Virus record (IMG/VR): IMGVR_UViG_3300007735_001031
Location: 8,349-72,348 of that record
Source: a virus
Reading direction: 5' to 3' (one strand)
Length of the DNA stretch: 64,000 nt
The notes beneath the pieces were generated by a model. The model saw only the letters and a list, made by a program, of their open reading frames with translations. It made no database searches and was not told the DNA's origin. The first letter of the stretch is position 1, and every line of letters begins with the position of its first letter. The position numbers and the translations under genes were made by a program. Of this stretch, positions 18 through 41,760 are shown piece by piece.

Positions 18-203
18 TTATTCCTCAATATGTCTGATGTGTGATTCTACTTCGCCGTATAAATAATAGTCAACGAATCCATCTCCATAATCTGCGGCCG
101 GGCCATCTTCTCTATGGAGTTTATCATTTTTATACCAGAACTTAAATGGTGGGCAATTAAGATCTTCTGGATAATCAATTCGTAATTCTATTACTCTACC
201 CAT
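18..203 (-). CDS. small HRxDGPA-motif protein
   Basis: ORF track; FWYKNDKLHREDGPA motif typical of phage beta-hairpin repeat proteins. Confidence 0.75.
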   Translation of the reverse strand: MGRVIELRIDYPEDLNCPPFKFWYKNDKLHREDGPAADYGDGFVDYYLYGEVESHIRHIEE

Positions 204-2242: not shown

Positions 2243-2362
2243 TTATTCTAATATGATCCAAGTGGCTCTACCCGCTTCGTTATTCACCAACCAGTGATAT
2301 TGAAGCCAGGTGCGATTTAACGAGGGTAAATAAGCAACATGGAGTTGAACTTGCTTTTTCAT
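2243..2362 (-). CDS. 39-aa micro-protein (array family, dispersed member)
   Basis: Hand translation MKKQVQLHVAYLPSLNRTWLQYHWLVNNEAGRATWIILE; ATGA overlap with upstream stop. Confidence 0.6.
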   Translation of the reverse strand: MKKQVQLHVAYLPSLNRTWLQYHWLVNNEAGRATWIILE

Positions 2363-2794: not shown

Positions 2795-3157
2795 TTAATC
2801 CTCTCTCTTCTTTTCTACCAAATCTTTCTCAATAAGCGGGAGGATGTTATCACTCCAAATATCATTCTTAATTTCTTGGAAATTATCCCAATATCCGTCC
2901 GTTTTAGCGTCCTCTTTTGGATAATGGACATATTCCAAAAGAACATGCGGAGGAATTGTATTCAGACATTCTCTCAGGTTCTCATATTCTTCTCTGTATT
3001 CTCTATCATAGATAATATCAGTGATTACATTTTCGGTGGTAATGACTTCAATATCAGCAGAAACAATCTCGTCCTCACCAAGAGCTTGGAGTTCTCCAAT
3101 CTTTTCTTGGAGATAGTTGATTAGTTCATTAACGGGGATAATTTTTCTGTAATACAT
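2795..3157 (-). CDS. hypothetical acidic protein
   Basis: ORF, SD GGAGG. Confidence 0.7.
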   Translation of the reverse strand: MYYRKIIPVNELINYLQEKIGELQALGEDEIVSADIEVITTENVITDIIYDREYREEYENLRECLNTIPPHVLLEYVHYPKEDAKTDGYWDNFQEIKNDIWSDNILPLIEKDLVEKKRED

Positions 3158-3307
3158 TTAATCCTCCACTTTGACGGAACGAGTGTGAATAGAACCAAAG
3201 GTTTTGTGTGGAAATTTGTGATAGGGCTTCTTATTCAGCCACCAAGAATATTCAATCACGGTTGGATTTATAGAATAAATATCAGTCATTAGAAGATAGG
3301 TTTTCAT
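3158..3307 (-). CDS. micro-protein array member A (49 aa)
   Basis: MKTYLLMTDIYSINPTVIEYSWWLNKKPYHKFPHKTFGSIHTRSVKVED. Confidence 0.65.
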   Translation of the reverse strand: MKTYLLMTDIYSINPTVIEYSWWLNKKPYHKFPHKTFGSIHTRSVKVED

Positions 3308-3441
3308 AGCCACACAAATCGTCTATTGGTTAATCCAATCTTTTTATCCACACAGCAATATAATGGAATTTCGTTCAACCACCAAGAATACTTAACGGCG
3401 TTCGTAGCATAACTTTCAACTCTTAAGTGGTATGTTTTCAT
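3304..3441 (-). CDS. micro-protein array member B (45 aa)
   Basis: MKTYHLRVESYATNAVKYSWWLNEIPLYCCVDKKIGLTNRRFVWL; ATGA coupling at both ends. Confidence 0.65.
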   Translation of the reverse strand: MKTYHLRVESYATNAVKYSWWLNEIPLYCCVDKKIGLTNRRFVWL

Positions 3442-3551
3442 CTGAATTGTAGCAACTTAAACTTAAATGTTTTGCCGTTTATCAGCCATTCTTTTCTCAA
3501 GAGATCTGGGGCGGAATATTGTTTGCGAATTGTAAATGTATGAATCTTCAT
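3438..3551 (-). CDS. micro-protein array member C (37 aa)
   Basis: MKIHTFTIRKQYSAPDLLRKEWLINGKTFKFKLLQFR; ATGA coupling. Confidence 0.65.
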   Translation of the reverse strand: MKIHTFTIRKQYSAPDLLRKEWLINGKTFKFKLLQFR

Positions 3552-3664
3552 AGATAAATAAACCTCGTCCAAATTTCATAACCATCAACATAGAATGTTT
3601 GGCAAAGACGAGTTGGTATGTATTCCCACTCACTTGTATAGATTTTAAGTTTGTAGGTTTTCAT
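3548..3664 (-). CDS. micro-protein array member D (38 aa)
   Basis: MKTYKLKIYTSEWEYIPTRLCQTFYVDGYEIWTRFIYL. Confidence 0.65.
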   Translation of the reverse strand: MKTYKLKIYTSEWEYIPTRLCQTFYVDGYEIWTRFIYL

Positions 3665-3770
3665 CTAATTTAACGATCCTGCTTCCTGCGAAAACGAATT
3701 GATAGTTTATGAACCAAGAATACTTAATATAATATCGTGTTTGAAATACTCTCAACTCATATCTTTTCAT
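3645..3770 (-). CDS. micro-protein array member E (41 aa)
   Basis: MKRYELRVFQTRYYIKYSWFINYQFVFAGSRIVKLDENLQT. Confidence 0.65.
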   Translation of the reverse strand: MKRYELRVFQTRYYIKYSWFINYQFVFAGSRIVKLDENLQT

Positions 3771-3883
3771 AGATCAACATATATTCTAATTCTTTTGCCT
3801 TGGTTCTTTAGCCCAAACCATTCATAACGAACAAACGGCTCGGACACACTAACTATCTCAACACTTAATTCAATCGTTCTCAT
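3767..3883 (-). CDS. micro-protein array member F (38 aa)
   Basis: MRTIELSVEIVSVSEPFVRYEWFGLKNQGKRIRIYVDL. Confidence 0.65.
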   Translation of the reverse strand: MRTIELSVEIVSVSEPFVRYEWFGLKNQGKRIRIYVDL

Positions 3884-3983
3884 GATAAACAAACCATTGT
3901 TTAATACAACGATGATCAACAAACTTACGATACATCAAGGCATTACTTCTACATACATTAACATCTAATTCAATCGTTCTCAT
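3866..3983. repeat. 18-bp direct repeat (taattcaatcgttctcat), copies 100 bp apart
   Basis: Identical at 3866-3883 and 3966-3983; encodes MRTIEL in members F and G. Confidence 0.9.
3870..3983 (-). CDS. micro-protein array member G (37 aa)
   Basis: MRTIELDVNVCRSNALMYRKFVDHRCIKQWFVYHEND; ATG overlaps the deaminase TGA. Confidence 0.65.
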   Translation of the reverse strand: MRTIELDVNVCRSNALMYRKFVDHRCIKQWFVYHEND

Positions 3984-4390
3984 AGCTTCATCATCTCAAA
4001 GTATCCATCCTCAGTAGAGTAGAATACACGCTTGCTTCCACAGAATCGCATAGCTTCCTGACACATAGAACAAGGCTTGGAGTTGCGATACTCATTCTCA
4101 TAATTCACACGAACAACATAAACATCGGCTCCCTCGGTGGAGTCCTTCGCCATATTAAGAATGGCTCCGAGTTCAGCGTGAAGCGTTGCCTGTCCCTTAG
4201 TTCTGCAACGAAAGCGACCACCAAAAGAACAAGGCTTATCCTTGTTGTGGGAAGCATTTAGGACAACCCCGTGCTTCACCAAAACGGCACCATGACGAAA
4301 CTTTCCGTAGCTGGAAAGCTCCGCCATTCTCTTTGCGAACTCAAACATTCGCTCGTTTCGTCTGGTAAGATCAATAGTTCTGATATACAC
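3980..4390 (-). CDS. zinc-dependent CMP/dCMP-type deaminase
   Basis: HGAVLV, HAE and PCxxC motifs; GTG 4390 has an AGGAG SD. Confidence 0.85.
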   Translation of the reverse strand: MYIRTIDLTRRNERMFEFAKRMAELSSYGKFRHGAVLVKHGVVLNASHNKDKPCSFGGRFRCRTKGQATLHAELGAILNMAKDSTEGADVYVVRVNYENEYRNSKPCSMCQEAMRFCGSKRVFYSTEDGYFEMMKL

Positions 4391-4411
4391 GACACCGCTC
4401 CTCACCCTCAC

Positions 4412-4440
4412 AGCATACAGGGGAGATAATTACAGGTCAA
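4412..4440 (-). promoter_or_regulatory. sigma70-type promoter
   Basis: TTGACC-tgtaattatctcccctg(17)-TATGCT; reads into the deaminase and the micro-ORF array. Confidence 0.7.
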
Positions 4441-4567
4441 GCTTGCTAATAATGTTTCTATAATACCTTTCATTATAGAATCTTCCATTCTTTAACCATT
4501 CACGGCGAATAAGATCACCACCGAATAACCTAACTACCAGTTTGTATTCCGCGATCTCTGGCTTCAT
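4430..4567 (-). CDS. 45-aa micro-protein (array family)
   Basis: MKPEIAEYKLVVRLFGGDLIRREWLKNGRFYNERYYRNIISKLDL. Confidence 0.55.
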   Translation of the reverse strand: MKPEIAEYKLVVRLFGGDLIRREWLKNGRFYNERYYRNIISKLDL

Positions 4568-4745
4568 GTTCGTCGTCAATCCATATTCCATTTATGTAAT
4601 AATCCTTATTCATTCCTTCAAAAGAGTCATAAATAAAAGCAGGGCCATCCATTCTGTGAAGTCCATCGCCATTTCCCCACAATTTAGCGGGCATACGATC
4701 AAACTCAATTTTGTTATATTCCACAGAAAGGGTTATTACTCTCAT
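4530..4745 (-). CDS. small HRxDGPA-motif protein
   Basis: MRVITLSV...LWGNGDGLHRMDGPA. Confidence 0.7.
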   Translation of the reverse strand: MRVITLSVEYNKIEFDRMPAKLWGNGDGLHRMDGPAFIYDSFEGMNKDYYINGIWIDDEHEARDRGIQTGS

Positions 4746-5053
4746 ATCAGCCCACGATCCTTCCCGTCAATACAGAAATCACATTCGCCTCTTCCATCGC
4801 AGAAACAGCAGGAGAAATATTTATCTACATTCTCTTTCACTTCTGCTTCCGACATTTTAGCAATATCTTTGGCGAATTGTTCGGCTGAATCAAATGCTCC
4901 ACAATTACAATCGTGCCAATCTTTATACCAGCCGCAAGTTGGTGAATGTTCCTCTTCACCATACTGGCAACCAACAGAACACCACAAACGATTCAACTCG
5001 TTGCTACCAATCTGATATTCTTTTCCACAAACACAGCAGTTAAGCGTTATCAT
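4742..5053 (-). CDS. Cys-rich putative zinc-binding protein
   Basis: Multiple CxxC motifs and an H-x3-C-x9-C-x-C cluster. Confidence 0.65.
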   Translation of the reverse strand: MITLNCCVCGKEYQIGSNELNRLWCSVGCQYGEEEHSPTCGWYKDWHDCNCGAFDSAEQFAKDIAKMSEAEVKENVDKYFSCCFCDGRGECDFCIDGKDRGLI

Positions 5054-6291: not shown

Positions 6292-6340
6292 TCCTCCTCT
6301 GCTATACACTAACTATAGCAGAGGAGGAAATCTGTGTCAA
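6292..6340 (-). promoter_or_regulatory. sigma70 promoter overlapping a 15-bp hairpin that contains the SD
   Basis: TTGACA-N17-TATAGT (6340-6312); stem arms 6292-6306 and 6314-6328. Confidence 0.7.
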
Positions 6341-6356: not shown

Positions 6357-6746
6357 TTATCCGTTGTCTAATATTTTACCAACAGTTTCAACAACTTCAT
6401 CAAGAGTTGAGCAGAACCTGCCTTTAACTCTAACTCCGAAATCATCATTATCAATTGCTAAGAACATAAAAATATCATCGCTGGATGACTTACCATGTTT
6501 GTTGCCGTTATAAAAGATACCTGCGATTCCTTGAGTTTGAATTTCAAACTTACCAGGACCAAACTCTCGATCTAATCTATCTACGATTTGATCAAGAATT
6601 GGCTTTCCTTTTCCTCTATTTGCTTTTAGCCCAAATCCACTACGACCACCAGCGGAAGGAGAAGCTCTACCAAAATCACCTTCATCTAAGGTATCTTGGA
6701 TTGCCTCTAAAATCATTTTCTTTAATAATCTATCGTTCATTAACAA
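6357..6746 (-). CDS. hypothetical, putative late/virion-cargo protein
   Basis: ACTATTTA upstream (6767-6774); LLKKMILEAIQDTLDE leader. Confidence 0.65.
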   Translation of the reverse strand: MLMNDRLLKKMILEAIQDTLDEGDFGRASPSAGGRSGFGLKANRGKGKPILDQIVDRLDREFGPGKFEIQTQGIAGIFYNGNKHGKSSSDDIFMFLAIDNDDFGVRVKGRFCSTLDEVVETVGKILDNG

Positions 6747-6773
6747 TCTCCTATAAGATTACAGGATAAATAG

Positions 6774-7436
6774 TTATTCAAATTCCTTAATTGCCTTTTT
6801 AAGCTTTTTCAATTCATCTTTCAAAGAGGAAATTGATTCAGAAAATTCTTTATCTTCTTCAAGACCAACAAACTTTAAGAAATTAGATTCCAAGCTTTCA
6901 AACTCTTTGTTTGTTTCATCAATTAAAGATTGAACTTCTTTTGATTTAGCATCACATTTGGTTTGTTCTTCTTTCTTCTTTTCTTCCCGCTTTTGTTGAT
7001 CTTGAGATTTATGATCCTGTTTGGGAGATTTAGATTTTGATCTTAACTTTTTCAAATGTCCTGCCTTTGATAGAGCAGAAACCCCTGTTGCTACTACTGC
7101 GGTTGTAGCCGCAACGGCAATCGTAGCAACGACAGCAGTTTCTGTATTGAGAACTGGCTTATCAACTTCTTTCGGAGGAATAGCAATAAGCGTTGAACTT
7201 TCTGATAGAGGAACAGAAACAGGTGGAGTTGTAGCAGTTTGATCTGTCGGAGTTTCTACCGCTGGTGGAGCCACTATGGTATCCTCCTGGGGTAGGGGTA
7301 TGGTCTTATCCTCCACCTGTTTCTTTTCTGGAATAGGATGATGTTTAACCACTTTCTTCTTCACAGAAGGTTGTGGTTTTTTCTCTTCATCCTTTTCTTC
7401 TTCACCATATTCAAAAGAGAAAGGATTATTACTCAT
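6774..7436 (-). CDS. low-complexity protein with one hydrophobic segment
   Basis: Pro/Thr-rich region, AVVATIAVAA segment, charged C-terminus. Confidence 0.7.
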   Translation of the reverse strand: MSNNPFSFEYGEEEKDEEKKPQPSVKKKVVKHHPIPEKKQVEDKTIPLPQEDTIVAPPAVETPTDQTATTPPVSVPLSESSTLIAIPPKEVDKPVLNTETAVVATIAVAATTAVVATGVSALSKAGHLKKLRSKSKSPKQDHKSQDQQKREEKKKEEQTKCDAKSKEVQSLIDETNKEFESLESNFLKFVGLEEDKEFSESISSLKDELKKLKKAIKEFE

Positions 7437-8330: not shown

Positions 8331-8531
8331 TCATAGGTCTAGCATAGCAGACCCATATTTCTCGCGCAAGTTATCAAAGAATTGTTTTGAGGCGAGAATG
8401 ATTTTATCTGTATTCAATTTCTTCTTTGCTTTTAGTGTTAATAACTGACCAGCAAACAAAGACATATCAGCCCAACGCGGGGACAAGATATAATATTTCT
8501 CACCATCAAAAATATACTCTATAGTTGTCAT
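8331..8531 (-). CDS. hypothetical protein
   Basis: ORF between tRNAs; ACTACTTA immediately upstream. Confidence 0.55.
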   Translation of the reverse strand: MTTIEYIFDGEKYYILSPRWADMSLFAGQLLTLKAKKKLNTDKIILASKQFFDNLREKYGSAMLDL

Positions 8532-26038: not shown

Positions 26039-27609
26039 TATACCTCCACGATTGCGTTATTTGTTGTAATCAACGTTGATACAACTGAAATAGAATTCTT
26101 TATGGCAGAGGTTGTAACTTTCACAGGGTCAATCACGCCTGCCTTGTACAAGTCTACCACCGTGCGCGTCTTGGTGTCAAGGCCGAGTCCGTCCTTTGAC
26201 TTGATAACCTTTTCAGAGAGAATTTGTGCCGGAAGGTCAAGATTCTCACAGATCTTTTCAAACGGAGCCGATAACGACTTGATAACAACATTGTAGCCGA
26301 CAGCTTGATCCTCGGTTAGATCCTTTGGGACTCTAATAGCCTTAGAAGCCTTTAGAAGAGTTGTGCCGCCACCTGGGTGGGTTCCGGCCATTTGCGCTGA
26401 TTTAACAGCCTCCAAGGCGTCCTCAATACGGTGTTTCTTTTCTACGACTTCTACCTCACTTGAACCACCAACACGAATGGTTACAACACCACTGGCAAGT
26501 CTTGTAATTCTATCTTGGATTCTCTTACATTCTTCTAAGTCAGCAGTCTCTTTGATAAGTTCTTTAAGTTCTTCAGATCTTTTATCTATCTCTTCCGCCG
26601 ATCCCTTGCCTCCGATAATCGCCGTTTGAGTCTTTCCAACTTCCACCGCTTTACAACGGCCAAAATCTGCAAGCGTAAATTGGGAAAAATCCAAACCAGA
26701 GTCTCTAGTAAAAAACCTACCATTAGTAGCGACAGCAAGATCAGCCAAAACATTTCTTCTTTCTTCTCCGTAGTAAGGGGCTTTCACGGCAACAATCTTC
26801 ATGGAATTACGAAGAGCATTCATAATCAAAGCAGCTAATAGTTGTCCTTCAACATCATCAGCAACAATAATTAAAGGTTTCTTTTCTCTAGCCGCAAGTT
26901 CTAAAACAGGCATGATTGGTTCTACATGCTCTAACTTCCAGTCAGTAATAAACAAGAGACAATCATTATGCTTGGCTACTTTTCTCATTTCGTCAGTGAT
27001 AAACTGAGAAGAGAGGTAGCCAGACTCAAAGATAAAGCCTTCGGTTAAGTCCAGTTCTGTTTCGTAGGACTTGGAATCCTCAATTGTGATCGCTCCATTC
27101 TTACCCGCCAGATCAACGGCTTTGGCGATTAGCTTACCAATAACTTTATCATTATTGGAAGATACGGTTGCGATATTCTCAATATCTTCAATTGAGTTAA
27201 TTGACTTTGACTTAGAATTGATAAAGGCGATTACATCGTCCTTTGCCTTTTCCATACCCCTTCTCATTTCAGTTGGAGAAATGCCGGATGAAAGATACTT
27301 CTGTGATTCCTTTAACATACGATACGCTAGGAGGGTGCTAGTAGTGGTCCCATCCCCTGCTTCGTGTGCTGTAAGCATGGATACTTGCTTGAGAATCTGT
27401 GCTCCAGCATTCTCAAACGGATCTTCAAAATCAACAAAGCGAGCAACAGTTACGCCGTCCTTTGTAATGATTGGTCTTTTATCTTTTTGTTGTAAGATTA
27501 CATTTCTTCCACCAGGTCCAAGTGTGGAAGAAACAAGATTAGATAGTTTTTCTACGCCTAACAGGATCTTTTCCTGTAATTGTTTGTTGCCCTCGTAAGC
27601 CTTTCCCAT
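26038..27609 (-). CDS. groEL: chaperonin GroEL
   Basis: TLGPGGRNV, ITKDGVTVA, AGDGTTT, RIEDAL, GVIDP.KVT. Confidence 0.97.
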   Translation of the reverse strand: MGKAYEGNKQLQEKILLGVEKLSNLVSSTLGPGGRNVILQQKDKRPIITKDGVTVARFVDFEDPFENAGAQILKQVSMLTAHEAGDGTTTSTLLAYRMLKESQKYLSSGISPTEMRRGMEKAKDDVIAFINSKSKSINSIEDIENIATVSSNNDKVIGKLIAKAVDLAGKNGAITIEDSKSYETELDLTEGFIFESGYLSSQFITDEMRKVAKHNDCLLFITDWKLEHVEPIMPVLELAAREKKPLIIVADDVEGQLLAALIMNALRNSMKIVAVKAPYYGEERRNVLADLAVATNGRFFTRDSGLDFSQFTLADFGRCKAVEVGKTQTAIIGGKGSAEEIDKRSEELKELIKETADLEECKRIQDRITRLASGVVTIRVGGSSEVEVVEKKHRIEDALEAVKSAQMAGTHPGGGTTLLKASKAIRVPKDLTEDQAVGYNVVIKSLSAPFEKICENLDLPAQILSEKVIKSKDGLGLDTKTRTVVDLYKAGVIDPVKVTTSAIKNSISVVSTLITTNNAIVEV

Positions 27610-38262: not shown

Positions 38263-38928
38263 TCATAGCTGATTAATCATAGGGAAGATTTCTGTAATAA
38301 CTTTGGCGATTTCTGCGGCAACAAGCATATGTTCTTTTTGCGTTCCCGATCCTTCACCGCGAACTTCTAAGTAATGAACCCAAGAACGAAGAGATCCTTT
38401 CATGTAGAGGCGGGACTTTGTTAGACCTTCTGGTAGAACTTTGCGGGCAACTTCTTTGGCGATGCCGAGATCTATGGCTTGGCGATAAACCATATTACAA
38501 TATTCAATTACATTCTTCTGATAATCATTCCACCACTCTTGGGTCTTTTGATCTTCTGTTGGAATGCTATTCTGCCGATTCTTTAGATCTTGTGTTCTGG
38601 CCTCGGATAATTCAAACATATCACCAAGAGCAGAAACGTCAGAGTATCTCTGGCTAAACTCTTGGAAACTAAATGATCTATGTCTAAGCATTTGACGAGC
38701 AATATCTCTCGTCGTCTCGATCTCCAAAGTCATATCCACCATTTCCAACGGAGACCAGTGTTTATGCTGAATAAGATACTTAATCAGTTTCTCGGAGGTT
38801 GCCGAATTCATTTGATTTGTTGGATTGGATACACGAGCGCAATACGCCACCAGGTCGGTAGGAGTGGATAAACCTTGTTCTTGTAGATTATCGGCTGCTT
38901 TTGTATAGGAAACTAAACTAACTTTCAT
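38263..38928 (-). CDS. thyX: FAD-dependent thymidylate synthase
   Basis: ARVS, HWSPLE, RHRSFSFQEFSQRY, EVAR.VLP. Confidence 0.97.
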   Translation of the reverse strand: MKVSLVSYTKAADNLQEQGLSTPTDLVAYCARVSNPTNQMNSATSEKLIKYLIQHKHWSPLEMVDMTLEIETTRDIARQMLRHRSFSFQEFSQRYSDVSALGDMFELSEARTQDLKNRQNSIPTEDQKTQEWWNDYQKNVIEYCNMVYRQAIDLGIAKEVARKVLPEGLTKSRLYMKGSLRSWVHYLEVRGEGSGTQKEHMLVAAEIAKVITEIFPMINQL

Positions 38929-40182: not shown

Positions 40183-41760
40183 TTAAAAGTCAAATTTAAA
40201 TGATGTGTAATCTGGTTCTGGTTGTTTCTCTGCCTGTGGTTTTATCTCTGGCTTTGATTCTGGTTCACTGGTTAATCCCAATTTCTCTTTTTCAGCTTGC
40301 CAAGCTTTTTGAGACCGATATTTTTTTCCATCTATGTAGTATTCTTTAGAATATGGACTAAACACGGCTGGTCCATCTAATCTATGTTTTTTACCATCTT
40401 TATACCACATCTCAGATCCATCAATAGCTTTAACTGCTGGGCCTCCAATTCTATGTTGTTTACCATGCTTATACCAGCTTTCGGATCCGTTCTTCCAAAT
40501 AATTGCTGGCCCATTTTCTCTGTGTCTTTCTCCGTCTTTAAACCATTCTTTAATGGCACCGTTATTCTGGATCGATGCTGGTCCGTCATCTCTATCTAAT
40601 TTACCATTACGATACCAATATTGGGAATCGCGGGTAATTCTTGCTGGACCATCTTCTCTATGAAGCACTCCATTTTGCCACCATTCTTCTTTATTCAAAT
40701 AAGAATATTTGGGATCTTTATAAACAAGAGCAGGGCCACCTACTCTATGTCTTTCTCCGTCTTTATACCACTCTTGCTGAGTTTCTCCGAAATCAATTGC
40801 TGGTCCATCCAATCTATGTAGTTTACCATTCTTATACCACTCCTGCTTAATCATAAGACCATCTGTCGGAGTTTTAATTATAACTGCTGGTCCGTCGTCT
40901 CTATGTTTTTCGCCGGATGAATTATAATAAGTTATATGAGGGCCAGAATATCCTTTTACTTGCGTAACCATTCCACCATTTGGTAGTTTTTCAGATTTAT
41001 ATTCTTTAGCCTTATTAATAACTTGTTTTGGTAGCTCTTTTATTTGTTTAACAATATCGTTTAATATAAAGAATATACCTTGTCCATATACGGTTTTATC
41101 TTCTTTATCCATATATTGATTAGAACCATAACTAAACTGATATTTTTCACTTGGGTCCTGTTTAGAAATAAAAATAATTAATGGACTATCTCGCTTATGA
41201 TACTGCGTATAATAGTTTCTACTGCCTCTTGAAGCAGTACACCATCTAGTTCCAGTTCCAAGTTGGCAAGAGGCCGCCTTTGATTCTGGAATATAAACAT
41301 TCCATTCATTATCTTCATAGATTTTTCTTACGTCTTCTTCTTTAACTACGGCCGCTTTCTTTTTGCCTTGATAAACTCTCCATTTACGAGAAGATTTTTT
41401 CATCATCTCTGTAAATTCTTCTACGCTTTCAAAAGCATTAATATCATTTTTGGTTAGCATTCTATCAAGATTATTTGCCTTAATCATATAGAATTCTTCA
41501 ACAAATTTTTGCTTAGGTCCTTCAACAACTCCATTCATCATGAATTGTTTTATTCTCCAGTTAAGATAATTTGCTTTCTCAGAATCTTCTATATCTTCTG
41601 GAACAGTTGATAGTATTGCTTCTTTTGTTTGTTGAGCATCTACTTTATGATAATTGCAGGAATTAAGGAATTTTTGTGAATCTAATCTTGGTAGAACCTC
41701 TTCATATTTTAGTTCTACTAATAAATACCTTCTCCAAGATTCCATTAAAAGATGCATCAT
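40183..41760 (-). CDS. protein with leader, GTxWCT domain and about eight HRxDGPA repeats
   Basis: LLMESWRRYLLVE; LGTGTRWCTA; repeated WYKxG..HR.DGPA. Confidence 0.8.
   Translation of the reverse strand: MMHLLMESWRRYLLVELKYEEVLPRLDSQKFLNSCNYHKVDAQQTKEAILSTVPEDIEDSEKANYLNWRIKQFMMNGVVEGPKQKFVEEFYMIKANNLDRMLTKNDINAFESVEEFTEMMKKSSRKWRVYQGKKKAAVVKEEDVRKIYEDNEWNVYIPESKAASCQLGTGTRWCTASRGSRNYYTQYHKRDSPLIIFISKQDPSEKYQFSYGSNQYMDKEDKTVYGQGIFFILNDIVKQIKELPKQVINKAKEYKSEKLPNGGMVTQVKGYSGPHITYYNSSGEKHRDDGPAVIIKTPTDGLMIKQEWYKNGKLHRLDGPAIDFGETQQEWYKDGERHRVGGPALVYKDPKYSYLNKEEWWQNGVLHREDGPARITRDSQYWYRNGKLDRDDGPASIQNNGAIKEWFKDGERHRENGPAIIWKNGSESWYKHGKQHRIGGPAVKAIDGSEMWYKDGKKHRLDGPAVFSPYSKEYYIDGKKYRSQKAWQAEKEKLGLTSEPESKPEIKPQAEKQPEPDYTSFKFDF

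Follow-up and report, generated by a model that had tools for sequence, protein, structure and literature searches.

The window considered here is a stretch of 64,000 nucleotides (positions 8,349 to 72,348 of IMG/VR record IMGVR_UViG_3300007735_001031) from a large, uncultured freshwater phage of approximately 180-200 kb, as estimated by CheckV on its relatives; all coordinates refer to this window. Its replication and nucleotide-metabolism module carries on the minus strand a dCMP-deaminase-like gene (cd, 3980..4390, 136 aa; phrog_174, E 2e-15), directly behind which lies an 826-bp "gap" (3158-3983). The gap is fully tiled, also on the minus strand, by seven ATG-started ORFs of 37-49 aa. In order of translation these are G (3870..3983, 37 aa), whose first 18 nt and six residues are common with F; F (3767..3883, 38 aa), the most widespread subtype, with the motif R-Y-E-W-F-G-L-K-x-Q-x-K-R; E (3645..3770, 41 aa), which has a "YSWFIN" strand like those of A and B and is missing from some strains; D (3548..3664, 38 aa); C (3438..3551, 37 aa), with the motif K-E-W-L-I-N-G-K; B (3304..3441, 45 aa); and A (3158..3307, 49 aa), whose last codons contain the Shine-Dalgarno (SD) sequence of the next gene.

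The likely start of cd is a GTG at 4390 after the SD sequence GAGGAG (duplex -8.9 kcal/mol). Its HAE and PCxxC columns do not vary among 13 sequences, and tblastn found identities of only 28.0-33.3%, in jumbo phages of Xanthomonas and Stenotrophomonas and in a Desulfovibrio phage. The coupled run ends in a 120-aa gene (2795..3157, minus strand) with a strong SD of its own (duplex -9.3 kcal/mol), the orthologue of which stands upstream of cd in the relatives L002 and L004.

Tiling and expression of the array

Stop and start codons overlap as ATGA at five junctions (deaminase/G, F/E, D/C, C/B and B/A), which bears out the first-pass annotation, where such overlaps had been reported for most junctions including that with the deaminase. 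The overlaps are longer at G/F (14 nt) and E/D (20 nt), and the stop of A directly adjoins the ATG of the following gene. ATG-started ORFs of at least 30 aa on one strand cover 100% of the array. The mean coverage in 5000 dinucleotide shuffles was 32% and the maximum 89%, with 95% or more reached in 0 of 5000; among 153 windows of 826 bp taken from the antisense strand of the window, the highest coverage was 91% and none attained 95%. The seven-ORF tiling claimed in the first pass is thus beyond chance, and the shuffled-sequence control that had been named there never did as well. Codon-usage log-odds did not separate real from overlapping ORFs, an alternative ORF at 3463-3591 scoring similarly. 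Rfam gave a single row at 22 bits, below the gathering score of 55, so that an RNA gene is not indicated. Two other explanations, one long gene read by programmed frameshifts and a pseudogenised multi-repeat gene, were dropped, since an ATG and an N-terminal cap belong to each unit and units come and go as wholes, independently of one another.

The SD duplex energies at the starts of G, F, E, B and A are -2.7, -2.2, +0.2, -0.9 and -0.9 kcal/mol, while 45 long genes have a median of -6.1 and random sites one of -2.2; the duplex is weaker than -3 kcal/mol at five of the seven micro-gene starts, and C has an SD (duplex -6.6). All seven starts lie in overlaps, and most thus show the arrangement of a coupled array, an overlap and no ribosome-binding site of their own. 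Since the five starts without SD lie in stop/start overlaps, we infer that the micro-proteins would be made by termination-reinitiation from the deaminase message. Their amounts would then be roughly fixed, probably declining along the array.

The first-pass annotation had also placed a sigma70 promoter at 4412-4440, reading into the array. This site matches at only 9 of 12 positions, and 11 sites of this quality occur in the region where shuffles give 12.6 +/- 3.6; being no better than chance, it is not taken as evidence. One weak promoter-like site lies inside E, the counts of promoter- and terminator-like sites are not above those of shuffles, and no terminator-like hairpin was found inside 3158-3983. 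Contigs over parts of the array were also seen in two RNA-library runs, X20, a library that may contain DNA and gives at most a weak hint of transcription, and X17, which is probably DNA and gave contigs over array parts only; bins uncovered by library contigs carry no information.

Paralogy, selection and turnover of units

Kinship among the units was assessed with leave-one-out HMMs searched against 1997 six-frame stretches. The left-out unit ranked first for A (E 8.2e-7), B (E 1.2e-7), F (0.003) and E (0.035), G ranked second (E 0.19) and D third (E 0.4), both marginally, and C, at rank 38, was not significant. An eighth micro-type member lies outside the array (2243..2362, minus strand, 39 aa; orthologue P0013) and was the recurrent top non-training match of these HMMs (E 0.017-0.3). 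A ninth (4430..4591, minus strand, 45-53 aa), with the motif R-E-W-L-K-N-G, is located just upstream of cd and has orthologues in L004, L005, P0032 and P0034. Where 11 micro-ORFs had been counted earlier, we could place nine of micro type in the 72-kb contig, A-G and these two, together with longer repeat-bearing relatives at 18-203, 4530-4745, 1213-1488 and 40186-41760.

All seven micro-proteins show the N-terminal pattern M-(K/R)-x-(Y/I/H)-x-(L/F), as had been described; the list of aromatic strands given with it stands apart from G, whose central strand is the "YRKFV" segment, while "KQWFV" is its last strand. The DNA traces of duplication noticed in the first pass are real: an identical 18-mer opens F and G, TATTCTTGGT is found in A, B and E, and ATGAAAAC(A/C)TA stands at the starts of A, B and D. 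As TRF detected no DNA-level tandem repeat, the units are regarded as old duplicates. Judged from the sequences, paralogy is well supported for A, B, E, F and G at the least, probable for D and possible for C. The proposal of a fully paralogous set therefore holds clearly for A and B and well for E, F and G, is weak for D and is unproven for C.

A search of 5.8 billion proteins yielded orthologues for five of the seven units, A (P0001, 92% identity), B (P0002), G (P0003), F and D (P0005, on 25 contigs), and none for C and E, both of which are covered by contigs from independent runs. In a collection of 15 billion proteins only one of the seven is recorded with its exact sequence, namely G, on 6 contigs. 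F, D (L004 5524-5682) and the 4430-4591 member are also present in the DNA of relatives, and P0031 is a further orthologue of A. Pfam, PHROG and NCBIfam models gave no usable match for any of the seven micro-proteins, the ESM Atlas none for F or B, and megablast of the region against 50,697 phage records no match at all. Longer fused forms of F, sought with the 44-aa L002 orthologue, were not found, which is weak evidence. The sole F-like match in a Bacteroidia MAG contig was rejected as spurious, since it runs antisense to a gene for a P-type ATPase.

Among 29 listed substitutions, 20 fall at codon position 3, 6 at position 1 and 3 at position 2 (binomial p = 9e-5), a count that is a sample (40 of 177 differences listed) with haplotypes mixed. 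Read in the ORF frames, these substitutions alter 9 amino acids, compared with 16-21 when fixed frames are used; all four listed in C are at third codon positions, and the indels listed inside the array are all net multiples of 3. Nei-Gojobori dN/dS is 0.16-0.32 for F, 0.19 for D and 0.25-0.39 for the 4430-4591 member, compared with 0.02-0.07 for cd. The micro-genes are under purifying selection, weaker than that on the deaminase. The 826-bp gap thus consists of seven genuine protein-coding micro-genes; orthologues, third-position bias, dN/dS below 1 and in-frame indels uphold the earlier view of the ORFs as real, selected genes. The cassette had also been called diversifying; in the sense of positive selection this fails, as whole-gene dN/dS values of 0.16-0.39 argue against positive selection overall.

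Array content varies between strains, as the first pass had supposed, with exactly E, or C, or G, F and E together missing. The relative L004 has the order cd-F-D and lacks E. E is also missing from a contig of run X6, in which the two sides of the joint (3657->3764) have the 7-nt ATGAAAA in common; 4 nt are shared at the joint 3660->3980, and a joint 3441->3542 is seen in array contigs as well. In a contig of run X20 C is replaced by 10 nt, and in one contig of run X10, at depth 5, cd is joined directly to D and F is absent. Whole units are present or absent between strains, and the joints fall exactly on the unit-starting ATGA(AAA) motif. Members of the family begin with Met-Lys or Met-Arg, and every unit consequently starts with ATGA. 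Recombination between two such starts would remove or add whole units with frame and coupling kept, which would explain the cassette-like turnover.

The hyperplastic regions of T4-type phages offer a comparison, small early genes being described there as shuffled modularly by means of PeSL promoter/stem-loop cassettes (PMC2839356, PMC4122927). Both systems gain, lose or replace small accessory genes between close relatives and use short conserved boundary sequences as recombination sites. Unlike in the cassettes of those accounts, the boundary here is the 4-7 nt ATGA(AAA) of paralogous genes, with no promoter and stem-loop at the borders of the exchanged genes, and the units are paralogues that are autonomous translationally, not transcriptionally.

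A tandem array of small proteins of approximately 60 aa also occurs behind cd in sister phages (L011-L018 and L020), with 8 copies in L017. It resembles the micro-array in occupying the same slot after the deaminase, in its head-to-tail small paralogues and in its variable copy number; two exact ATGA overlaps and one 11-nt overlap were found among six junctions examined in L017. It differs in belonging to an unrelated family with the motif V-G-D-L-x-x-Y ... Y-G-I-I ... W-x-D, for which five members gave no Pfam match and which leaves the impression of being SH3- or Tudor-like.

Predicted fold and relation to a repeat family

The AF2 model of F (pLDDT 91.9) has three strands, at residues 5-11, 17-23 and 32-37, and that of B (pLDDT 85.1) is all-beta, so that structure prediction gives beta-hairpin or beta-meander mini-proteins for these two, in line with the beta-hairpin peptides suggested in the first pass. 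It is well supported that each micro-protein is an all-beta mini-domain with an N-terminal strand "M-K-x-Y-x-L-x-V", an aromatic "Y-x-W-x-x-N" hairpin and a closing strand. The alignment of F orthologues (14 sequences, down to 53% identity) has 13 invariant columns; the strands are invariant, and it is at the first hairpin tip that both sequence and length differ, consistent with the fixed scaffold and variable loop that had been proposed. Fold searches with the F and B models stayed at noise level (Foldseek against PDB, best E 0.12; VIA, best Z 3.5; BFVD, best E 0.48). No MORN entry was among the Foldseek and VIA matches listed, and no similarity above noise to AcrF10 or other listed inhibitors was found. 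The modelled fold of F and B is a generic beta-meander.

Comparison of sequences makes it well supported that the micro-proteins correspond to the N-terminal cap and first repeat of "WYxNGxxHRxDGPA" repeat proteins, which are DUF6745/MORN_2-like and widespread, being known from bacteria as well as phages. With hhalign, the alignment of micro-proteins (A2) matched an alignment of repeat-bearing proteins (A3) over 32 columns (probability 92.5%, E 4.9e-7) and one of 8 canonical proteins independent of the window over 24 columns (probability 71%, E 3.6e-5); in the control for the latter the score was reached by 1 of 200 column shuffles. Profile-profile support for homology is thus moderate. The A2 profile also retrieved P0037, which has an F-type start followed by 3 repeats. 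At E <= 0.001 the A3 family takes in 2229 of 5680 candidate proteins, and many of its members are pre-annotated as PF20530 or PF07661 and some automatically as "antitoxin YwqK". Of four listed A3 matches compared with Pfam, P0040 (33.7 bits), P0050 (34.6) and P0052 (31.5) pass the DUF6745 cutoff of 27 bits and P0047 (25.7) lies below it; P0052 also passes MORN_2 (32.5 against a cutoff of 29.6), and P0062 passes DUF6745 (28.1 bits). Homologues of the repeat family found in isolate phages are all labelled "hypothetical".

Canonical members have 110-190 aa, 3-5 full repeats and a C-terminal "G-K-V-V-E-I-D-G-K-K-Y" tail. Like the micro-proteins, they begin with a cap strand (M-K-x-Y-x-V/L-x-V), after which come an aromatic "W-x-L-N-G" strand and a turn. 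A cap strand ending Y-x-V-x-V within the first 5 residues was seen in 6 of 9 canonical proteins inspected; in P0077 it follows three extra residues, and P0052 and P0136 have none. To this strand of the family, M-(K/I)-x-Y-x-V-x-V directly before the first repeat, corresponds the N-terminal pattern found in all seven micro-proteins. They differ in having one degenerate half-repeat, a single aromatic "x-W-x-x-N(G)" strand, in place of tandem repeats of approximately 24 residues, and in having neither HRxDGPA nor the tail. PF20530 and PF07661 gave no match at E <= 10 to the seven micro-proteins or to the 53-aa and 71-aa relatives in the window.

Longer forms are encoded by the same phage. A relative at 18..203 (minus strand, 61 aa) has the N-terminal strand and "WYKNDKLHREDGPA", one full repeat, and an intermediate form at 4530..4745 (minus strand, 71 aa) has the N-terminal strand and one "HRxDGPA" repeat; the latter is a member of A3 and matches the A3 HMM by construction. 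A long member at 40186..41760 (minus strand, 525 aa) carries at least 7 "W-x-x-N/D-G-x-x-H-R-x-x-G-P-A" repeats in its C-terminal half and matches the A3 HMM in 8 stretches (E 4e-38). One phage thus holds a graded series of family proteins of 39, 45, 61, 71 and 525 aa. The first-pass annotation knew of no described system like this array; the units now appear as minimal relatives of a large, Pfam-touched repeat family, and the sister phages have an analogous array of a different family in the same place.

Among the 37 profile matches obtained in 1.84 billion representatives, 23 were large proteins, and Pfam on 12 of these gave Ig_3-type domains in 10 and PKD/SprB-type repeats in 2. Their scores are sums of short "Y-x-W-x-x-N-G" strand matches and are hence read as motif convergence, not homology. 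Searches of PDB sequences with a 4-repeat relative and with the A3 profile returned chance rows only, alignment A4 recovered only the three known relatives again from viral contigs, and the literature on phage MORN, YwqK, MORN_2 or DUF6745 proteins contained no study of this phage family that we could find.

Possible function and significance

The explanation that best covers these observations, to which we give a probability of roughly 60%, is that the array consists of selected one-hairpin micro-genes, kin to the repeat family, translationally coupled, turned over as whole units and encoding accessory binders. More tentatively, and as a possibility rather than an expectation, the proteins may be soluble cytoplasmic binding modules, each of which meets a protein partner with a small beta-sheet face and a hairpin tip that varies. 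Together they would form a dispensable, fast-turnover accessory set for host manipulation or counter-defence, with F as its conserved core member that may work with the deaminase. Small phage proteins below 100 aa are reviewed as host-takeover and anti-defence effectors (PMC11323111); the micro-proteins share the size class, the accessory-gene location and the strain-variable presence of the effectors treated there, and differ in that no member of their family has a demonstrated target. A bolder form, which we consider doubtful, treats the array as a plug-and-play library whose minimal binders consist of one hairpin each, the tip serving as specificity loop and the coupling overlap doubling as recombination joint. 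Co-infecting phages could then exchange units, and units could be deleted or duplicated, with frame and expression intact; strains would deploy differing sets against host targets that vary, among them perhaps defence proteins of the deaminase or another type, and the sister-phage array would be another case of such a design.

The position of F invites a narrower reading, which we hold to be rather doubtful, in which F, perhaps with G, serves the dCMP deaminase as a small partner of its own, made in fixed ratio through the ATGA coupling, and the others are spare paralogues; F would regulate or stabilise the enzyme or dock it to nucleotide-synthesis proteins. All 10 informative close relatives have an F-type gene no more than two genes downstream of cd, which in 6 of them overlaps the cd stop by ATGA, and the 13 invariant columns over 14 orthologues, many of them charged, fit a conserved partner. 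However, the single X10 contig (depth 5) dispenses with F, and none of 10 relatives with a 58-62% identical cd has it. Some proteins of the parent family are automatically named YwqK, and YwqK is reported as an immunity protein that co-purified in complex with the cytidine-deaminase toxin YwqJ, of the PF14431 deaminase family and LXG/PT-TG/PF14431 architecture (bioRxiv 10.64898/2026.09.29.755374). That name is, however, an automatic label on distant members, and YwqJ as described there belongs to a different deaminase family; no polymorphic deaminase toxin adjoins the array, the neighbour cd being a metabolic enzyme without trafficking domains. Assembly of the hairpins edge to edge into an extended MORN-like sheet, as homo- or hetero-oligomers, would make the array a repeat protein encoded in separately translated, exchangeable units. 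The parent family does consist of long runs of the same hairpin, at least 7 repeats of it in the 525-aa protein of the same phage, co-transcribed and coupled units suit a stoichiometric assembly, and modelled three-stranded sheets of approximately 40 aa have exposed edges; yet each unit resembles the N-terminal cap plus first repeat rather than an internal repeat, strains do well on differing subsets (cd-F-D, cd-D, D-B) and AF2 models the monomers at high confidence, all of which makes this improbable.

A role as small basic proteins that bind DNA or RNA in replication appears quite improbable. It would suit the location in the replication module, the pI of 9.4-10.7 of A, B, C and E and the conserved K-x-Q-x-K-R-x-R cluster of F, but D, F and G are near neutral (pI 7.8-8.2), fold searches with the F and B models gave no beyond-chance similarity to known nucleic-acid-binding folds, and no such role is known for the parent repeat family. 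We regard it as very improbable that most units are non-functional leftovers, that is, duplicates in decay or pieces left from a longer repeat gene, open by chance or only recently inactive. Such an origin would agree with the dispensability of units between strains, the five starts without SD, the missing database orthologues of C and E and a dN/dS several-fold above that of cd; against it stand ATG, open frame and N-terminal motif kept in all seven, a tiling that no shuffle equalled, the third-position bias (C included) and in-frame indels, dN/dS well below 1 and the confident AF2 models of F and B.

Gene callers routinely pass over genes of 37-49 codons, and the array presents a whole row of them that is selected, strain-variable and predicted to fold with confidence. 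It ties orphan micro-proteins to a very large, functionally blank repeat family, of which they would be the smallest natural unit, a chemically synthesisable beta-meander of approximately 40 residues that lends itself to studies of structure and binding. That units come and go as wholes, exactly at the ATGA(AAA) overlap, points to a simple rule by which phages may reshuffle coupled small genes without loss of expression.

The minus-strand array and its genomic setting

Seven ORFs, each opening with ATG, tile the minus strand completely from 3158 to 3983, as the first-pass annotation had proposed for this gap: G (3870-3983, 37 aa), F (3767-3883, 38 aa), E (3645-3770, 41 aa), D (3548-3664, 38 aa), C (3438-3551, 37 aa), B (3304-3441, 45 aa) and A (3158-3307, 49 aa). 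Directly upstream lies a dCMP-deaminase-like gene (cd; 3980-4390, minus strand; phrog_174, E 2e-15), the HAE and PCxxC columns of which are invariant in 13 sequences, and the ATG of a 120-aa gene (2795-3157) immediately follows the stop of A. The cd stop and the G start share an ATGA overlap and the identical 4-nt overlap recurs at F/E, D/C, C/B and B/A, whereas the G/F and E/D overlaps are longer (14 and 20 nt); the earlier description of ATGA at most junctions, including cd/G, is thus accurate. The N-terminal pattern M-(K/R)-x-(Y/I/H)-x-(L/F) was found in all seven micro-proteins, and the DNA remnants of duplication reported previously are present in the sequence.

This tiling is far above chance: ORFs cover 100% of the array, against a mean of 32% and a maximum of 89% in dinucleotide-preserving shuffles (0 of 5000 at 95% or more, hence none equally good), and none of 153 antisense-strand stretches of 826 bp in the window was tiled at 95%. 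No tandem repeat was detected in the array DNA by TRF, and an Rfam scan of the region gave no above-threshold match. A 42-aa ATG ORF in another minus-strand frame (3463-3591), lying across C and D and with no orthologue seen, is probably spurious.

The window belongs to a single viral contig of 72,348 bp, with all long ORFs on the minus strand. PHROG matches include DNA polymerase, thymidylate synthase, ribonucleotide reductase, a DnaB-like helicase, a UvsX-like recombinase and SSB, together with a GroEL-like chaperonin, a methyltransferase and HNH endonucleases, and these matches identify the region as a large phage's module for replication and nucleotide metabolism. No close isolate phage was found among the phage records searched; related cd genes occur on 18 metagenome contigs and on three IMG/VR contigs. 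For the latter three viral records, of 46-112 kb, CheckV estimates 25-61% completeness, from which a genome size near 180-200 kb was extrapolated. The sequencing runs with the locus carry freshwater, sediment or viral metagenome labels, and one has a marine label. The phage-encoded chaperonin lies at 26041-27609 (phrog_5725, E 1e-134), the thymidylate synthase at 38266-38928, and an ORF at 48056-49060 matches phrog_1211 ('2-aminooxy adenylosuccinate synthetase', PurZ-like; E 3e-67); in combination with cd, the latter two may point to DNA with a modified purine (2-aminoadenine). Small ORFs are densely packed in the 8.3 kb of contig outside the window, where two further frames of ~70 aa upstream of the window (about -1858 to -1444 in window coordinates) encode a cap strand and 'HREDGPAW'.

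Coding evidence, strain turnover and expression

Searching a collection of 5.8 billion proteins with a profile of the seven units gave six candidates, five of them at E <= 0.01. These five correspond as orthologues to A (92% identity), B, G, F and D; none of C or E was found in this search. Contigs from X6 and X10, two independent DNA studies, and from X17 and X20, two RNA-labelled libraries, were mapped to 2795-4411. In a sample of 40 displayed differences out of 177, the 29 array substitutions fall mainly at codon position 3 (20, against 6 at position 1 and 3 at position 2; binomial p = 9e-5) and alter 9 residues in the ORF frames versus 16-21 in any fixed frame, and all indels listed inside the array are compensated to a multiple of three. 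Nei-Gojobori dN/dS was 0.16-0.32 for F, 0.19 for D, 0.25-0.39 for the related ORF at 4433-4567 and 0.02-0.07 for cd. The orthologues of five units, the third-position bias, the in-frame indels and the dN/dS below 1 show that the units are real genes; the same whole-gene dN/dS values speak against calling them diversifying in the sense of overall positive selection. The codon-usage score places all seven in the coding range and was given no weight, because an overlapping alternative ORF passes too. Contigs of X20, a metatranscriptome library, cover 3022-3441, 3542-3592, 3806-3939 and 3966-4089, which for a single RNA library is no proof of transcription.

Eleven loci carry a cd at least 85% identical, one of which (L005) ends just past cd, leaving ten. 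All ten have an F-type gene near cd, directly after it in six (L001, L002, L004, L006, L010, L021) and second after it in four (L003, L007, L008, L009). The ten include dependent pairs: L003 and L008 are one and the same 111,588-bp record, and L001 is near-identical to L002. The order is cd-F-D in L004 (cd 99% identical). An X6 contig joins 3657 to 3764, an exact loss of E between two ATGAAAA heptamers which gives the L004-like order cd-...-F-D; an X10 contig joins 3660 to 3980, placing D directly on the cd ATGA with G, F and E absent; and an X20 contig has 10 nt in place of C. Unit turnover is thus directly visible at these joints. Every family member starts with Met-Lys or Met-Arg and every unit consequently with ATGA, so recombination between any two unit starts would retain both frame and coupling.

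The gene order around cd is also rearranged between relatives (window 2795-3157 and 4742-5053 versus L002:5125-5595 and 6630-6983): in L002 and L004 the 120-aa gene has its orthologue upstream of cd, and a Cys-rich 'SPTCGW-x-KDWHDC-x-CGAFD' protein is encoded upstream of cd in the window and downstream in these two relatives.

The Shine-Dalgarno duplex has a median of -6.1 kcal/mol over 45 long genes versus -2.2 at random sites. It is strong at cd (-8.9) and at the gene after the array (-9.3), weak to fair at D (-4.4) and C (-6.6), and missing at G (-2.7), F (-2.2), E (+0.2), B (-0.9) and A (-0.9). Given these missing sites and an overlap at every junction, the simplest reading would be termination-reinitiation along a single message beginning at or before cd. 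The sigma70 promoter proposed earlier (4440-4412), a 9/12 match, was disregarded, because 11 such sites occur in the region against 12.6 +/- 3.6 in shuffles. The best promoter-like site of the region (6292-6340; 11/12, extended -10 TG) overlaps a hairpin with a perfect 15-bp stem and resembles a regulatory promoter/stem-loop element.

Paralogy, predicted fold and origin of the units

Leave-one-out HMMs were searched against 1997 stretches from a six-frame translation of the genome. B (E 1.2e-7), A (8.2e-7), F (0.003) and E (0.035) ranked first, G second (0.19) and D third (0.4), while C ranked 38th and was not significant; the competing frames are themselves relatives outside the array (2243-2362, 39 aa, and 4430-4591). 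On these ranks the subgroups A/B/E and F/G are well supported and D is a probable paralogue, so the proposal of seven paralogues stands for five units and probably for D; C is placed only by its motifs and position. An HMM from the micro-protein alignment A2 (25 sequences, orthologues included) detects members absent from its training set at L002 2463-2603 (E 1.8e-7) and L003 1473-1613 (E 1.9e-5). With nine micro-type matches in this contig versus 1-3 per whole record of relatives, the seven-gene run is a local expansion.

AlphaFold2 with family alignments predicts confident all-beta models for F (pLDDT 91.9; strands 5-11, 17-23, 32-37) and B (pLDDT 85.1; strands 4-12, 15-22, 30-32, 36-38, 40-44), in keeping with the suggested beta-hairpin scaffold. 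Fold searches with both models gave matches at noise level, as a 40-residue beta-meander does, and were uninformative; sequence searches found no solved relative. Among 14 F orthologues the 13 invariant columns all lie within residues 1-8 and 20-31, and the tip of the first hairpin between these blocks varies in sequence and length, which fits the idea of a fixed scaffold with a variable loop.

Pfam, PHROG and NCBIfam scans of the seven micro-proteins matched no model. A profile search of 1.84 billion representatives gave 37 matches at E <= 0.001. Small proteins of 37-48 aa account for thirteen of them (six F-type, two like the 4430-4591 member, and one each for A, B, D, G and the 2243-2362 member), and one, P0037 (113 aa), has an F-like beginning followed by three full 'WYxNGxxHRxDGPA' repeats. 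The remaining 23 are large proteins, ten of the 12 scanned with Pfam being Ig_3-type arrays and two PKD/SprB-type; the matches consist of multiple short hits at a 'Y-x-W-x-x-N-G' strand, and they were rejected as homologues and read as convergence.

Proteins with this repeat form a very large parent family: of 5680 candidates, 2229 reach E <= 0.001, many of them pre-annotated as PF20530 (DUF6745) or PF07661 (MORN_2) and a few auto-named 'antitoxin YwqK'. Of four listed matches scanned with Pfam, three passed the DUF6745 cutoff, P0052 that of MORN_2 too, and P0047 fell just below. Profile-profile comparison of A2 with six repeat-bearing members gave a probability of 92.5% (E 4.9e-7), the aligned part being the N-terminal strand with the first repeat, and with eight canonical proteins picked independently of the window 71% (E 3.6e-5), a score reached by 1 of 200 column-shuffled controls; both lend moderate support to homology. 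Canonical members start 'M-K-T-Y-K-V-x-V', continue with 3-5 repeats and end in a conserved C-terminal tail, so the micro-proteins look like this cap strand joined to a degenerate version of the first hairpin, with one closing strand. Intermediates in the window (a 71-aa ORF at 4530-4745 and a 61-aa ORF at 18-203) share the initial strand, followed by an 'HRxDGPA' repeat, and in L003 cd and F are separated by a 49-aa two-repeat gene, with another gene of at least four repeats further along. A 525-aa protein (40186-41760) carries at least seven 'W-x-x-N/D-G-x-x-H-R-x-x-G-P-A' repeats in its C-terminal half and no family match in its N-terminal half. Judged strictly, by Pfam score, a minimum of two repeats and the presence of HRxDGPA, the micro-proteins are not members; by profile homology and cap strand we regard them as minimal derivatives of the parent family, and the earlier view of an orphan without any described system is not upheld. 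Within the parent family, L007:6572-6730 (52 aa, two 'HRDNDQP' repeats) and L003:7572-7853 (at least 94 aa, four) are versions of one gene in relatives otherwise near-identical, and differ by repeat expansion or contraction.

Function and comparison with known systems

The micro-proteins are soluble and mostly basic, with negative GRAVY and no hydrophobic segment, and their genes sit among dispensable small genes; we infer small accessory modules that bind proteins and vary between strains. Among the alternatives, the most specific makes F a partner of cd, as the conserved F-cd linkage would suggest and as would YwqK, described in the available text of a preprint as the binder of a deaminase toxin (bioRxiv 10.64898/2026.09.29.755374); however, F is absent in one strain variant and from the more distant cd clades (0/10), and the YwqK label is remote. 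Overall, the observation in the first-pass annotation is confirmed and its interpretation partly supported.

In T4-type hyperplastic regions, as far as the available text of two reports describes them, small accessory genes are exchanged at short boundary sequences via promoter/stem-loop cassettes (PMC2839356, PMC4122927); here turnover takes place at the ATGA unit starts, and such cassettes are absent from the array. The parent family is present in databases without a described function, the isolate-phage homologues found (Celeribacter P12053L, Agrobacterium Atu_ph07) being annotated as hypothetical, and the literature searched contained no paper on its single-hairpin derivatives or such arrays. 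In sister phages with cd 58-62% identical, a tandem array of another small-protein family directly follows cd at nine of ten loci (L017:5399-6916, also L011-L016, L018 and L020). Its members (about 52-70 aa; V-G-D-L-x-x-Y ... Y-G-I-I ... W-x-D) are unrelated to the micro-proteins, and a Pfam scan of five gave no match; L017 has eight copies, several with ATGA overlaps. Four features are new: the micro-size derivative itself, a cap and hairpin of 37-49 aa; its arrangement as seven coupled genes in a row; the gain and loss of exact units at the stop/start overlap; and, in the same slot of sister phages, a parallel array built from an unrelated ~60-aa family.
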